From IMG/VR virus record IMGVR_UViG_2531839666_000032: DNA of 43,524 bases; one strand, written 5' to 3'. This document shows, one piece after another, positions 3,730 through 38,679 of the stretch. Made by a program: the position numbers and the translations under genes. How positions within the stretch are numbered: position 1 is the first letter of the stretch; the number at the start of each line of letters is the position of its first letter. The notes beneath the pieces were generated by a model, which made no database searches, was not told where the DNA came from, and was given only the letters and a program-made list of their open reading frames with translations. The stretch comes from a virus (lineage: Duplodnaviria; Heunggongvirae; Uroviricota; Caudoviricetes).

Positions 3730-4329
3730 TCAGAACTTATAACCGACACCCATGATGAAACCGTCAGTGCGCCAGTCGCCACTGCCGGAGCCTTCATAAG
3801 CAATATCAATGGCCACGGATTCGGTCGGGTTAAACTGCACGCCAGCTCCCCACGCCAGAGACGTGTTGCTGTGGCGACCGTCATCACTTCCGGTCAGCAC
3901 GTCGTGCGTTTTCCCCTTGTTGTCAGTTACGCGGAGATAATCCCCGGAGAAAGTCGACACACGGCTGTAAGCCACACCCGCCATCGCATACGCGCTGAAC
4001 CATTCATTCACGCGCACAGACGGCCCCACCATCACGCTGAACCAGCGGTTACGAACGGAATCTTCATGCCAGCGGGTATCGCTGTAACGGGTCAGCTGGC
4101 GATTCTTGTCTCCTGCATAGCTGAATGACGTCACCAGCCCCAGTGTGTCCGTAAACTCATAACGGTATTTCACGTTAATCCCGTTCAGATCATCGCTGCC
4201 GGGAACGTTCGTCGAGGCATGAAGATACCCCGCGCTCAGCGTGGACTGATGTTCAGACGCCCATGCAGGCGCACCGGATACGGCCAGACAAATGGCTGCG
4301 GACAAAATGGCGGCATAAAGTTTACGCAT
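3730..4329 (-). CDS. lom: Outer membrane beta-barrel protein of the Lom/Ail/PagC family
   Basis: 199 aa, signal peptide MRKLYAAILSAAICLAVSGAPAWA, C-terminal YEGSGSGDWRTDGFIMGVGYKF; sits between J and stf as in lambda but is divergent from lambda Lom in the N-terminal two thirds. Confidence 0.85.
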   Translation of the reverse strand: MRKLYAAILSAAICLAVSGAPAWASEHQSTLSAGYLHASTNVPGSDDLNGINVKYRYEFTDTLGLVTSFSYAGDKNRQLTRYSDTRWHEDSVRNRWFSVMVGPSVRVNEWFSAYAMAGVAYSRVSTFSGDYLRVTDNKGKTHDVLTGSDDGRHSNTSLAWGAGVQFNPTESVAIDIAYEGSGSGDWRTDGFIMGVGYKF

Positions 4330-4395
4330 AATTACCTCTCGCTTTTCTGCAATAAAAAAGGCGTCATTTCTGACGCCCGTTATGGGTTATAAAAT

Positions 4396-7797
<3,402 letters not shown>

Positions 7798-29523: not shown

Positions 29524-30423
29524 TCAGGCTGCCAGACCACCATTTCCGATGGAAGCGTAATATGCCTTTTCCGCTTCTGCCGGCGGGATATGACCCAGTC
29601 GTTCCAGCAACCGTCGGTTATTGTACCAGTCCACCCACGTCAGTGTGGCCAGTTCCACTTCGGCGCGGTTTTTCCAGCTCTTACGATGTATCACCTCCGC
29701 TTTATAAAGTCCGTTGATGCTCTCCGCCATCGCGTTGTCATATGAGTCGCCTGTGCTGCCGGTTGACGCCAGCAACTCTGCATCCTTAAGCCGCTGAGTG
29801 TATGCCAGCGACACATATTGTGACCCCTTATCTGAGTGATGGATGGTGCCCGACGGGCGACGGGCCCACAGCGCCTGCTCCAGTGCATCCAGCACGAACG
29901 TCGTTTTCATCGACGATGAGACCCGCCAGCCCACAATGACGCCGGCGAACACATCGATGATGAACGCCACGTAAGCGAAGCCCTGCCAGGTGCTCACATA
30001 CGTGAAGTCAGCCACCCACAGCTGGTCGGGGCGTTCTGCCACGAACTGGCGGTTCACCCGGTCACCCGCAGCGGCTTCTTTCCGGCTGACTGTGGTGCGG
30101 ACCTTTTTACCCCGGCGCACACCGGCAAGCCCCATCACCTTCATCAGCCGTTCTACTGTGCACCTGGCCACGGTCACCCCCTCACGCAACAACTGGCGCC
30201 AGACCTTGCGCACACCGTACACGCTGTGGTTTTCATCGTACACGCGCTGTATCTCCGGCTTCAGCAGGTCATCACGCTGTGCCCGCTGACTGCGTTTATC
30301 CGGATGCCGTTGATGCGCACGATGCCGGTAATACGTTGACGGGGCGACAGCCAGCTCGTGGCATACCGGTCCGACCCCGTGCGCACCACGCAGGGTATCC
30401 ACCAGAGGCGCTATTTTTTCCAC
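29524..30423 (-). CDS. IS629 OrfB, DDE integrase-type transposase catalytic subunit
   Basis: 299-aa ORF, ...[34 protein letters not shown]...[10 protein letters not shown]...; overlaps orfA in the -1 frame, consistent with the IS3-family frameshift. Confidence 0.9.
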
Positions 30424-30737
30424 AGGCGGTCGAACTCCGCCTTCGCAAAATACGCGGAAGCCTGGCGCAGGATATCGTTGCTGCGGCGCAGTTCGCGGTT
30501 TTCACGCTCCAGTTCCTTCAGACGCTGACGTTCAGTGGTGCTCAGTCCGCCGTCACCTGCACCGGCATCGCGCTCATACTGACGCAGCCAGGTACGCAGG
30601 GTCTCAGGCGTACAGCCGATTTTAGGGGCGATGGAGCTGATGGCCGCCCACTGCGAGTCATAGTCATTCTGGCTTTCGATAACCATACGAACGGCCCGCT
30701 GACGGACCTCAGGGGAAAAGCGCGTATTTTTAGTCAT
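30411..30737 (-). CDS. IS629 OrfA, helix-turn-helix transposase subunit
   Basis: 108 aa [64 protein letters not shown]...[36 protein letters not shown]. Confidence 0.9.
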
Positions 30738-30794: not shown

Positions 30795-31151
30795 TTAATT
30801 GTGCTTTATTCCTTCAAGCGTTGCCTTCATACCAACCAAAGAAATGTTTAGCTCTCCAACTTTCTCAGGGCTATATAATTCAGAATGAAGCCAATATTCT
30901 GATTTATCTAAACATCTTTTAGCCAGCTCTCGATCAAAGTCTACGACTTGGGAAGACGCTTCATACCAAAGCCTATAAAGTTTTTCTTCTTCGTTTGGGT
31001 TATTAGGCTCACCACGTTTTAATTTTTCAGTATATAAAATTGTTGAACAAATCGCAGGAGTTAATCCAGTGATTGCCCTCTGCCGCAGATCGGATTTGTT
31101 TGTTATCCACCCCAACAGACGATCTCCCATCCATGTGATAATTGTATCCAT
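30795..31151 (-). CDS. Hypothetical protein (118 aa), AT-rich cargo gene
   Basis: ORF MDTIITWMGDRLLGWITNKSDLRQRAITGLTPAICSTILYTEKLKRGEPNNPNEEEKLYRLWYEAS with AAGAAGGG Shine-Dalgarno; no family recognised; stop codon is 3 bp from the IS629 end. Confidence 0.55.
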   Translation of the reverse strand: MDTIITWMGDRLLGWITNKSDLRQRAITGLTPAICSTILYTEKLKRGEPNNPNEEEKLYRLWYEASSQVVDFDRELAKRCLDKSEYWLHSELYSPEKVGELNISLVGMKATLEGIKHN

Positions 31152-31612
31152 GCTTTAGCCCTTCTTAGTAAATAGTGTGTAGGGCGACTGAAGGACCGAG
31201 TTTATGCTTTTTCGCATTGCTTTCAGTTAGTACACCGGTATCGCACCGGAAACAATCCTACGGCAAATTGGTTGTCTGACCTCTCGGTTTTTCGTGCATT
31301 AACCGATACCCACTACAGTCTCGGCGAAAGCTGCACACCCCCAGGGTGTACTGGTAGCACTCGGCACAGCCTAGCACGCCACTTTCTTCTCACTATCCAG
31401 TCTAATTTTATCCCCTAGTCAGACACTCAGATGTAGTGCTCCGCAGCGGCATGCGGGGGAATACAAAAACTCGGACAAAATTGGGCCCTCCTTTTTGAAT
31501 CACTCGCGGGGATGTAGTTATTAATACATGGAAAAAGATCTGTTTTCAAATCCAACATTATATGGTTTCAATACCACGGGGTGGCTATGTGTTTCTCATT
31601 GTTAATTGGAAT

Positions 31613-31936
31613 CTACTGTAATCGATCCGAACGTAAATGCGGCAAAACTCGACTCCACTTATCATCCTGCCACGGCCGGAATTTTACATGTGCCGTTTCT
31701 CTGGCAAGGATTGCCTGTGCCTTATTGAGTATCTGGGGATATTCTTGCTCGATAGAAGTGAAGCGACCAGCTTCACGATGCTCCGCAACCTGAAGAAGAG
31801 GAGTAACGTTCTGGTAGGTAATTAACATCACATTCCCTGCTCGCCATAACCAGGCGAGTGTGCAAAGTTCGTTATCAGTGAATTGTTTTGTGATTGGGGA
31901 TTGTTGAACTGCTAGAACGAGAACGCCAGCATCCAT
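31613..31936 (-). CDS. Hypothetical protein (107 aa)
   Basis: ORF MDAGVLVLAVQQSPITKQFTDNELCTLAWLWRAGNVMLITYQNVTPLLQVAEHREAGRF with AGGGA Shine-Dalgarno; no family recognised. Confidence 0.5.
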   Translation of the reverse strand: MDAGVLVLAVQQSPITKQFTDNELCTLAWLWRAGNVMLITYQNVTPLLQVAEHREAGRFTSIEQEYPQILNKAQAILARETAHVKFRPWQDDKWSRVLPHLRSDRLQ

Positions 31937-37877: not shown

Positions 37878-37998
37878 TACCAATTAAAAATTATCAACTG
37901 GGCATTGTGCTCATTCAGTAAAGAACTAATTCCTATCTTTGCTCTAGGTAGTAATATTAAGCCACCGCAATAATATCTTTACCTAACGGCGTAAGAAT

Positions 37999-38025
37999 CC
38001 CGGTCACCGTGCCGGGTTTTCTTTT
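37999..38025 (+). terminator. Rho-independent terminator after cI
   Basis: CCCGG-TCACCGTG-CCGGG hairpin followed by TTTTCTTTT. Confidence 0.6.
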
Positions 38026-38119
38026 GCCCTCCCCTCATCACACACACCGTTAAAAAAACCACCATAACCTCGCTTCAGTTATCGCTATGCGATTCAAGTC
38101 ACAAAATAAATCCATCCTA

Positions 38120-38196
38120 AATACAACCAGTTATATCTAAAACAACCAATAAAACAACTTTTGTTGTTGACGATAAAACAACTATAGTTTTAAATA
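38120..38196 (+). promoter_or_regulatory. oL/pL candidate: -35 TTGACG 38167-38172, -10 TTAAAT 38190-38195, overlapped by operator palindrome AACAAC-TTTT-GTTGTT at 38153-38168 and further AACAAC half-sites
   Basis: Read directly; same half-site family as in oR. Confidence 0.4.
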
Positions 38197-38388
38197 AGTT
38201 CATCGCAACAACACAACGATACGGCAACTACCTGATTCACCGTTGCGATGACCGCTTAGATCCGCAGTTTGAATTTCAGCAGGCTTCGGGGAGTGCGAGG
38301 GGTGAAACGGACGCGTGAACGTCGGTGTGACCAGCTGAAATTAACTCAACATTTCATACCTTAGTCGCTTCAACGAGGCGGCTTAGTT

Positions 38389-38679
38389 ATGACAACCGGC
38401 GGCCATCCACCGCCTGAATACGCGCAGAAGTCTCTATATGTTCAGCAGCCCAGCTTACGGGCAGGAGTTTTTATGGTTCATCAACATTATGGAACGCAGA
38501 CCGTTAATCGAGGTGCGGTCATGCCAGGAATGCTGGTCAAACACAAAGATGGTACCTGGACTGCATCAGCTAATTTACGCGGACGGCTTTATCTGCATCG
38601 CGGCATCGAGCGCACTTATACCCGTGATTTGCTCGTGGAAGTTTTTCTCGACGGACGCGGTAACGGCCTGAATCACTAA
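38389..38679 (+). CDS. Hypothetical protein (96 aa), first gene of the pL operon, in the position lambda kil occupies upstream of gam
   Basis: [73 protein letters not shown]; no family recognised; an alternative 77-aa frame overlaps. Confidence 0.4.

Follow-up and report, generated by a model that had tools for sequence, protein, structure and literature searches.

Comparative analysis points to a new family of large structured RNAs in lambda-like prophages of Enterobacterales

Background

Large pseudoknotted RNAs are rare in bacteria, and those that have been solved usually gave new biochemistry, including ribozymes, ribonucleoprotein machines and RNA-only assemblies. GOLLD, ROOL, HEARO, OLE and raiA are orphan large structured RNAs of this sort, reportedly found by Breaker, Weinberg and colleagues. 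Here we describe a predicted RNA of 331 nucleotides (nt) that in kind appears closest to these orphan RNAs and is a member of none of them. It lies on the minus strand of a 43,524-nt viral sequence (Caudoviricetes, IMG/VR record IMGVR_UViG_2531839666_000032), hereafter the window, which corresponds to an intact lambda-like prophage of the DLP12 family. The RNA is hosted in a gap of about 460 bp between two open reading frames (ORFs) of 118 and 107 amino acids (aa), in the accessory region between ren/emrE/ybcK and ybcN.

Like the orphan RNAs, the RNA would stand alone, is large, and combines an intricate fold with long-range tertiary pairs and many invariant nucleotides; it is also borne on prophages, as GOLLD and ROOL often are. 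It differs from all five in that no similarity of sequence or structure is detectable (cmscan). It is also shorter than GOLLD and ROOL (around 330 nt compared to 500-800 nt) and is confined to lambda-like prophages of Enterobacterales, where it occupies a fixed place and no association with tRNA genes was seen. The novelty is thus at the level of the RNA family. The RNA is found in the most studied bacterial species and in the clinically important Klebsiella and Enterobacter. Its absence from the laboratory strain K-12 may explain why it was overlooked, and RefSeq has no annotation on the segment in E. coli genomes.

Results and discussion

The RNA is conserved in prophages of four genera

Relatives of the segment were identified in 159 of 5,426 complete E. 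coli genomes, in 4 of 50,697 phage records, whose hosts are E. coli and Klebsiella, in approximately 70 IMG/VR viral contigs and in metagenomes, and no match was returned from the plasmids of PLSDB. Isolated phages with the RNA include Turner, IdasGreatGrand and Kp4856-1. The scan of genome collections yielded two true members only, one in Enterobacter pasteurii and a divergent one in Escherichia sp. ESNIH1; a match in a Burkholderiales genome is due to chance and is not recognized by the covariance model of the RNA. Further copies, in Obesumbacterium proteus and Enterobacter bugandensis, were reached independently through the 118-aa protein. Overall, exact-word scans of viral, genome and metagenome collections gave about 100 more loci, which collapse to 36 distinct sequences with 70-100% identity. 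A looser gapped pattern, applied to the viral contigs, returned no additional members.

The limits of homology are the same in all relatives and correspond to window positions 31513 and 31183. Between these limits the length is kept at 329-345 nt across the four genera, with very few insertions or deletions. The conservation is independent of the neighbouring genes: the copies of E. coli 3426 and of the Klebsiella phages Kp4856-1 and Kp4862-1 are 78-83% identical to the segment and their flanking genes are wholly different. The covariance model (R1) scores 384.5 bits at the window RNA. All its other matches fall at the homologous place, one per related locus, and it detects no second or paralogous copy of the RNA in any of these loci.

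Two domains are joined by a kissing loop and a pseudoknot

We derived the secondary structure from the comparison of the relatives. RNAalifold returned 78 base pairs on a 32-sequence alignment (A2), 16 of them with compensatory changes. When a model of 91 pairs is evaluated on the 36 distinct sequences, 97.2% of the cells are paired, compared to 31-44% in slid controls, where all 3' partners are shifted by one to three columns. Two-sided changes are detectable at 27 pairs (2-8 in the slid controls) and in 227 cells (8-30 in the controls), with cell counts being inflated by shared ancestry and independent compensatory events being modest in number. None of 500 shuffles attained the observed pairing or covariation score.

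The model is composed of two domains (Table 1). The 5' domain is a three-way junction that contains a long hairpin (nt 7-61) and a short hairpin (nt 67-89); its helices 1-4 are paired in 97-100% of the cells, with compensatory changes in helices 1 and 4. The 3' domain hosts a further three-way junction (nt 128-188), a hairpin (nt 189-212) and a long-range helix (nt 226-231 with nt 314-319) that encloses two small hairpins. Among its helices 7-16, two-sided changes occur in helices 8, 10, 12, 13 and 14. One copy of the RNA (L057:14193-14452) has undergone a deletion of approximately 70 nt, with most of the 5' domain gone and the 3' domain intact.

The two domains are joined by two tertiary pairings that cross the nested structure and that were found by a search over all pairs of alignment columns. 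The first is a kissing loop of 6 bp between the short 5' hairpin and a hairpin of the 3' domain. It is found in four complementary variants (CACUAC/GUAGUG, CGCAAC/GUUGCG, CAUCAC/GUGAUG and CACCAC/GUGGUG), it is paired in 99% of the cells and three of its six pairs covary. The second is a pseudoknot of 8 bp, paired in 99.7% of the cells, in which three pairs covary. Its variants include GUCUGAU/AUCAGAU in the L072 group (8-bp form GUCUGAUC/GAUCAGAU) and GUCCGGC/GCCGGAC in Escherichia sp. ESNIH1 (8-bp form GUCCGGCU/GGCCGGAC).

The model also defines the strand, which had not been given when the gap was initially annotated. G:U pairs account for 11.8% of the paired cells, and the same model read on the opposite strand falls to 85.8% of canonical pairs. 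Together, the compensatory changes and the strand-specific G:U pairs point to selection on a single-stranded transcript, read from the minus strand.

Overall, 131 of the 331 positions are invariant in the 36 distinct sequences, many of them in junctions and loops; many members were retrieved with exact patterns of 18-23 nt, so that those blocks are biased toward invariance, and members derived from BLAST or from the 118-aa protein also carry them. Among bacterial RNAs, a compact fold that combines several junctions, two long-range tertiary pairings and this number of invariant positions is typical of catalytic or ribonucleoprotein RNAs. The RNA could accordingly be imagined as a ribozyme, either processing itself or acting on another RNA. 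No ribozyme family of Rfam 15 matches it even at E = 10, no conserved processing site or substrate is evident, and what speaks for catalysis is a likeness in complexity. We consider a ribozyme very improbable.

Three hairpins had been proposed by eye in the gap, and they fare differently in the comparison. The CCGG-N7-CCGG hairpin (31232-31246) corresponds to helix 15 of the model and is conserved in relatives, with one compensatory change from C:G to U:A. According to alignment A2, the CCGCA/TGCGG hairpin is expected to have a C:A mismatch in most relatives, and the remaining one, which is actually a bulged ACTGAAG/CTTTCAGT, appears to be restricted to the lineage of the window; these two are not upheld. 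Folding of single sequences against shuffled controls, which had been suggested as a check, gave no signal, with z = -0.41 and +0.09 for the two strands of the 461-nt gap and z = -1.26 for the 331-nt RNA. This procedure would have missed the RNA, which is revealed only by the comparison with its relatives.

The segment does not evolve as a coding sequence

In the alignment of the distinct sequences, no reading frame is conserved on either strand. The variable columns are distributed over the three codon positions as 57/50/65, with no three-base periodicity. The longest stop-free runs measure 41-86 codons on the RNA strand and 59-109 codons on the opposite strand, and their frames differ between lineages. 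The record of phage Turner (PP925837.1) has two hypothetical proteins of 39 and 43 aa annotated inside the RNA gene (L005:4107-4226 and 4276-4407). They are not conserved in relatives and are probably spurious.

These data bear on the alternative that the gap hosts a decayed coding sequence, or a site of recombination or replication that acts as DNA. The segment adjoins what looks like a truncated P22-type antirepressor, an IS3 copy lies nearby and the cargo region is mosaic, which speaks for this alternative. Such a relic or site would hardly keep its length with few indels in four genera, and it accounts neither for the compensatory changes nor for the G:U pairs that are specific of one strand, in a segment with no conserved frame and no periodicity. 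Moreover, none of the relatives has one gene spanning the gap. In its more specific form, the initial annotation had suggested the decayed remainder of a longer gene beginning with the 107-aa ORF. This version is rejected, as relatives carry the RNA without the 107-aa ORF. The product of this ORF corresponds to a C-terminal P22_AR_C domain only (PF10548, residues 15-85 on profile positions 3-73 of 73), and any missing part therefore lies upstream of the 107-aa ORF rather than in the gap. We regard a relic or a DNA-level site as hardly credible.

A tiny ORF inside the 5' domain requires a separate discussion. It starts with UUG, 8 nt after an AAGGAGG (31487-31493), and is 19 codons long in 27 of 32 distinct sequences, 12 codons long in three and frameshifted to 16 codons in two. 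The transcript could thus be the messenger, or a dual-function RNA, for a peptide of 19 residues (MSEFLYSPAC-x-C...LSV), with the rest serving as a structured untranslated region (UTR) that controls translation or stability. The first ten residues are nearly invariant, and GGAGG is retained in L055 and L056 despite differences in the neighbouring bases. Several features speak against this reading: a deletion of one base shifts the frame in L074 and L088, a stop follows codon 12 in three E. coli variants, and L074 has GUUGG in place of the Shine-Dalgarno sequence. The changes in codons 11-19, most of them non-synonymous, coincide with those that covary as RNA pairs. As the stop codon is part of the invariant pseudoknot arm, the RNA structure may by itself account for the constant length of the ORF. 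Furthermore, only 60 of the 331 conserved nt belong to the ORF, and the other 270 are left unexplained by it, in a segment that has no three-base periodicity. The peptide is not hydrophobic, unlike type I toxins. Taken together, we consider a coding role improbable.

Predicted transcription signals flank the RNA

A consensus scan missed the clear minus-strand terminator of one related locus (L004). We therefore turned to direct folding of the 3' flanks and to an alignment of the upstream regions. The 27 distinct upstream sequences share GTTGAA, followed by 17 nt that are constant in length and not in sequence, and by T(T/A)(T/A)A(A/T)T. This AT-rich block, which resembles a -10 box, stops 7 nt ahead of the conserved RNA body. 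The arrangement points to a sigma-70-type promoter with a putative start near the first nucleotide of the RNA.

Next to the predicted -35 box, on its upstream side, the window carries CCATATAATGTTGG, which in relatives takes the form of the palindrome CCATATGTTGTATGG. This motif may be a protein-binding site. We evaluated it as a repressor site and discarded this possibility: 6-mers are in common with the immunity operators (ATGGTTGTT...AACAACCAT), but their arrangement is opposite, and in the window the palindrome is degenerate. In a metagenomic lineage (L098:5552-6808), an IS30-like element of approximately 1.25 kb, with ends TGTAGTGG...CCACTACA, is inserted exactly inside the predicted -10 box. 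This insertion would probably silence the RNA in that strain.

Downstream of the RNA, 16 of 22 lineages have a GC-rich terminator hairpin that starts 5-6 nt after its end. The U-run is mostly of 6-8 nt, and the stability ranges from -11 to -18 kcal/mol in 15 lineages and is -6.1 kcal/mol in L088. The sequence of the stem varies between lineages and yet stays complementary. The remaining six lineages, including that of the window, have no good terminator, and none is present in the relatives of the window lineage that have the 118-aa gene. In the lineage of the window the transcript should therefore continue into the 118-aa gene, and the two are probably co-transcribed.

Overall, we found covariation above that of the controls, strand asymmetry, terminators in relatives, a putative promoter, and conservation in unrelated gene contexts. 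Together with the absence of matches in Rfam, these features strongly support the proposal, made on first inspection of the gap, of a structured non-coding RNA (ncRNA) with no known family. In our judgement, a real structured RNA gene very probably lies on the minus strand.

The RNA may act in trans

The explanation that we favour is that positions 31513 to 31183 constitute a stand-alone ncRNA gene, with a transcript of about 360 nt when the terminator hairpin of the relatives is included. A sigma-70-like promoter of its own would drive the RNA in the direction of the phage early-right operon. In most lineages the RNA would end at a strong intrinsic terminator, and in the lineage of the window the same transcript would run into the 118-aa gene. 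The unit would be a self-contained accessory 'moron' of lambda-like prophages, placed upstream of an exchangeable cargo slot. Its stable fold would act in trans by binding a putative protein partner, as a scaffold, a decoy or a sponge, and its probable role would be in the dealings of the prophage with the host or with competing phages. Action in trans is suggested by the independent termination in most lineages, by a conservation that does not follow the downstream gene, and by loops that are used internally rather than as seeds. Antisense regulation seems unlikely. A search for antisense targets that covered the prophage gave matches at chance level; the longest stretch complementary to the RNA elsewhere in the window measures 12-14 nt, about the length expected by chance, and falls mostly in variable parts. 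Taken as a whole, and with action in trans included, we regard this statement as evenly balanced between right and wrong.

Several observations weigh against it. In addition to the modest number of independent compensatory events, the bias of the exact patterns and the unremarkable stability of single-sequence folds, the family is narrow, with at least 70% identity and roughly ten lineages. In most relatives the -10 box does not have the usual A at position 2, and neither in the window nor in L004 did a strict consensus scan call a promoter. With a non-canonical -10 box and no consensus call, the RNA might instead be cut from a long early-right transcript. Moreover, a strong Shine-Dalgarno sequence and a UUG start inside the RNA suit a coding role. 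Finally, the next gene begins about 27 nt after the U-run (in loci of the L066 type) or 32-34 nt after the RNA where the terminator is missing, with no evident promoter of its own.

This last arrangement would be expected of a leader acting in cis, namely a portable platform of promoter and sensor that sets the transcription or the translation of whichever gene follows in the slot. Variants of the same idea are a modulator of read-through at the terminator, or a processive antiterminator like the put RNAs of HK022. A leader would explain why an accessory gene in the same orientation is invariably adjacent, why Escherichia, Enterobacter and Obesumbacterium all have the RNA ahead of the 118-aa gene, and what the RNA does in the six lineages without a good terminator, in which it forms the 5' UTR. 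A possible switch is also present. RNA nt 40-50 are complementary to nt 308-318 (31464-31474 with 31196-31206; 11 nt, 91%), and this almost invariant pairing is an alternative to the 5' hairpin and to the long-range helix within the 3' domain. It may be a conformational switch; among the relatives, Escherichia sp. ESNIH1 shows a single compensatory change in it, and four breaks occur. Against a leader, the terminator stems vary and do not overlap the last helix, and we saw no conserved antiterminator pairing. Riboswitch regulons gather related functions, unlike the cargo proteins, which are mutually unrelated. The missing promoter of the cargo gene is weak evidence, as genes of the nin region are normally read from pR, and the RNA is retained where the downstream gene has decayed. 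In addition, 331 nt and about 16 helices exceed what known attenuators or put sites need. We consider a cis-acting leader unlikely, although it is the alternative to which we give most weight.

The RNA is found upstream of a variable cargo slot

To return to the ncRNA gene with action in trans, its surroundings are those of a module. The RNA unit is always placed between the ninB/ybcN block and replication or Ea22-like genes, and is followed directly by a single variable gene. Both the upstream and the downstream genes differ between loci, and an accessory gene in the orientation of the RNA is always immediately downstream. The families found in this slot include the 118-aa helical protein and proteins of 178 aa, 176-183 aa, 177 aa and 95 aa, among others. 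They are shuffled relative to the lineages of the RNA.

The 118-aa protein is the cargo of the window. Its homologues with at least 69% identity are always found 34 nt after the RNA, and one homologue with 51% identity exists without the RNA. In many E. coli strains (for example, L003:2800-3000 and L014) the 118-aa gene is cut to 66 aa and the RNA is intact, with 96-98% identity and a full score of the covariance model. Gene and RNA are thus not selected jointly. AlphaFold predicts the 118-aa protein as a four-helix bundle (pLDDT 79); a comparison with the PDB gave no significant neighbour, and the matches to HEPN domains are weak, at E ~1.

Some of the other cargo proteins have features that can be recognized by eye. 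The 176-183-aa proteins (L072/L004) carry RLRHNLLH, an R-x4-H motif as in HEPN RNases; the 177-aa proteins (L074/L100) start with MKNIIIDSNAW and resemble PIN domains; and the 178-aa proteins (L088/L068) have hydrophobic helices at both ends. No protein antitoxin is encoded beside these three groups. When the cargo proteins and the neighbouring proteins were compared with Pfam and PADLOC, no match was found except P22_AR_C in the 107-aa ORF.

These features recall the type III toxin-antitoxin (TA) systems ToxIN, CptIN and TenpIN, in which a promoter, an RNA, a terminator and a promoterless protein gene follow each other. The same order is detectable in 16 of the 22 related lineages, and the window is without the terminator. 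The RNA might thus neutralize a toxic cargo, with abundant RNA, a terminator and scarce toxin, and toxin-like cargo (R-x4-H, a PIN-like N terminus, a two-helix membrane protein) that is not accompanied by a protein antitoxin would fit this proposal. The tandem direct repeats that define type III antitoxins are absent: neither Tandem Repeats Finder nor a repeat search returned any tandem or direct repeat in 31100-31650, and we rejected the RNA as a member of this class. As for the proteins, they belong to several unrelated families, none of them matches the models of Pfam or PADLOC, the ToxN/AbiQ type included, and the 118-aa protein has no significant structural match. Furthermore, RNA and protein are not co-inherited, as their lineages are shuffled and the RNA persists beside a truncated cargo gene. 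Neutralization of a toxin in the manner of type III systems is in our view highly unlikely.

The fixed place of the RNA beside a slot of swapped and possibly toxic accessory genes remains suggestive of conflict between phage and host or between phages. A bolder reading would make the RNA the active part of a phage-conflict module, with a complex fold of a new class, for example as the gatekeeper or sensor of interchangeable toxic cargo, or else a new ribozyme or ribonucleoprotein core of temperate phages of E. coli and Klebsiella; this is a speculation to which we give little credit.

In L074, where the RNA is found at 4025-4355 on the minus strand, a leader of approximately 150 nt with three hairpins, belonging to ybcN/ninB, is present on both sides of the module formed by RNA and cargo. 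Relative to the RNA, one copy occupies the stretch from about 260 to 55 nt on the upstream side and the other lies about 650 nt away on the downstream side, a pattern that would result if insertion of the module had duplicated the leader. ORF finders translate this leader into a spurious protein (MTSAHLRGLKCDHNLNSS). The leader also follows the cargo gene in several other loci, and the window does not contain it.

Comparison with described RNAs

We scanned 1.4 kb around the segment with the 4,227 models of Rfam 15, accepting E up to 10, and obtained two snoRNA matches (E ~8) that are due to chance and lie outside the RNA. Also at gathering thresholds, in the window and in nine related loci, nothing was returned at the RNA. 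ARAGORN detected no tRNA or tmRNA in the whole window. We searched the literature both by sequence and by topic and came across no description of the RNA among the sources within reach, which do not include the unnamed entries of bulk catalogues of predicted motifs. There is no mention of it in the Pas small RNA (sRNA) preprint, in a survey of ncRNAs in 50 genomes or in a catalogue of RNAs from the human microbiome. By the absence of relatives among described families, this is a new RNA family.

The put sites of HK022 are about 70 nt long, form two stem-loops and lie just after pL and pR. Like them, the RNA is a structured element of a lambda-like phage, is oriented as the early operon and is followed by terminators. 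It differs in size and location, as it lies in the nin region behind a predicted promoter of its own. The prophage in the window has no obvious N gene at the usual place.

The transcripts of hok/sok type I systems (330-400 nt) are comparable in length, high nucleotide conservation, long-range pairing and a ribosome-binding site buried in a hairpin. We rejected this class, as the RNA has no conserved ORF for a hydrophobic peptide, no promoter for an antisense RNA was seen and neither Sok nor related models of Rfam match. A riboswitch or attenuator was likewise discarded: the terminator starts 5-6 nt past the closing helix, its stem is variable, no conserved competing pairing was seen, and the downstream genes form several unrelated and uncharacterized families, unlike a riboswitch regulon. 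Finally, the msr-msd RNA of a retron was rejected, with no reverse transcriptase annotated in the 43.5-kb prophage or beside the RNA in the related loci.

Prophage sRNAs such as DicF, IsrK, AgvB/AsxR, STnc100 and Pas are also ncRNA 'morons' of lambda-like prophages that mostly end at a terminator. They are 50-200 nt long and made of simple hairpins with short single-stranded seeds, whereas the RNA described here has 331 nt and about 16 helices, and its covarying loops, instead of staying unpaired, are engaged with one another. As for sRNAs of the Hfq type, the relatives have a U-tailed terminator, and size and fold are atypical. Copies of STnc100 and isrJ were found elsewhere in the same related loci by the Rfam scan. 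The prophage context of Pas and STnc100 has been described (bioRxiv 10.64898/2026.05.13.724894).

Genomic setting of the gap

The boundaries of the gap, its neighbours and the lack of any ORF of at least 60 aa between the flanking ORFs, all reported by the initial annotation, are correct, and the longest ORF in the gap has 48 aa. The ORF-free state had been considered unusual. In itself it is not, since 21% of the shuffles of the gap also have no stop-free run of 60 codons; what stands out is the size, as the gap is the third-largest annotated intergenic space of the prophage. It holds one stop-free run of 80 codons, without a usable start. The gap was also correctly described as GC-richer than ybcK and the 118-aa gene (0.46, and 0.51 in the RNA body, compared to 0.35 and 0.38, respectively); the GC content of the 107-aa gene is 0.47. 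The recurrence of CCGAG was confirmed too. The pentamer is present in one copy and its complement CTCGG in four over the 461 bp, against 0.5 occurrences expected from its frequency in the window (P-value ~2 x 10-4, Poisson).

Table 1. Coordinates of the RNA, of its predicted signals and of neighbouring features in the window (nt n of the RNA corresponds to position 31514 - n)
Feature	Position	Strand	Description
Structured RNA body	31183-31513	minus	331 nt
5' domain	31410-31513	minus	RNA nt 1-104; three-way junction
Helix P1	31508-31513 with 31410-31415		AUCCCC/GGGGAU; closes the 5' domain
3' domain	31186-31402	minus	RNA nt 112-328; closed by GACUGG/UCAGUC (31397-31402 with 31186-31191)
Kissing-loop arm CACUAC	31433-31438	minus	Loop of the short 5' hairpin; pairs with 31311-31316
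Kissing-loop arm GUAGUG	31311-31316	minus	Loop of the 3'-domain hairpin nt 189-212; helix 5
Pseudoknot arm GUCUGACU	31417-31424	minus	Strand between the short hairpin and P1; pairs with 31274-31281; helix 6
Pseudoknot arm GGUCAGAC	31274-31281	minus	8-bp pairing with 31417-31424
Tiny ORF MSEFLYSPACRCGALHLSV	31419-31478	minus	19 codons, UUG start, inside the 5' domain; stop within a pseudoknot arm
Predicted -10 box TATTAA	31521-31526	minus	TTTAAT, TTAAAT or TTATAT in relatives; predicted start near 31513
Predicted -35 box TTGAAA	31544-31549	minus	TTG invariant in 27 distinct upstream sequences
Motif CCATATAATGTTGG	31552-31565	minus	Palindrome CCATATGTTGTATGG in relatives; abuts the -35 box on its upstream side
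Spacer	31152-31182	minus	From the RNA to the 118-aa gene; holds the ribosome-binding site of that gene; no terminator
118-aa ORF	30795-31151	minus	Downstream neighbour of the gap
107-aa ORF	31613-31936	minus	Upstream neighbour of the gap
IS3 copy	29524-30737		Between the 118-aa gene and ybcN
ALIL frameshift pseudoknot	30340-30456	minus	Rfam match; inside the IS3 copy
IS009 RNA	98-296	minus	Rfam match; left end of the window, near tail-fibre genes

The E. coli FHI_NMBU_11 chromosome contains a stretch identical to the window. The prophage carries an integrase, exo/bet/gam, a repressor, O/P/ren, emrE, ybcK, ybcN-ninE-rusA-Q, and the lysis, head and tail genes, with the early-right operon on the minus strand. 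About 110 bp separate the 107-aa ORF from ybcK, which lies upstream of it.

Lambda carries pL, nutL and gene N directly after the repressor gene. At the corresponding place, the prophage has an annotated gap of 595 bp (37878-38472), in which no ORF of at least 40 aa is present within 37898-38388 and Rfam returned no match. The prophage may have no antiterminator of the N type, or another non-coding element may be hosted at 37878-38472.

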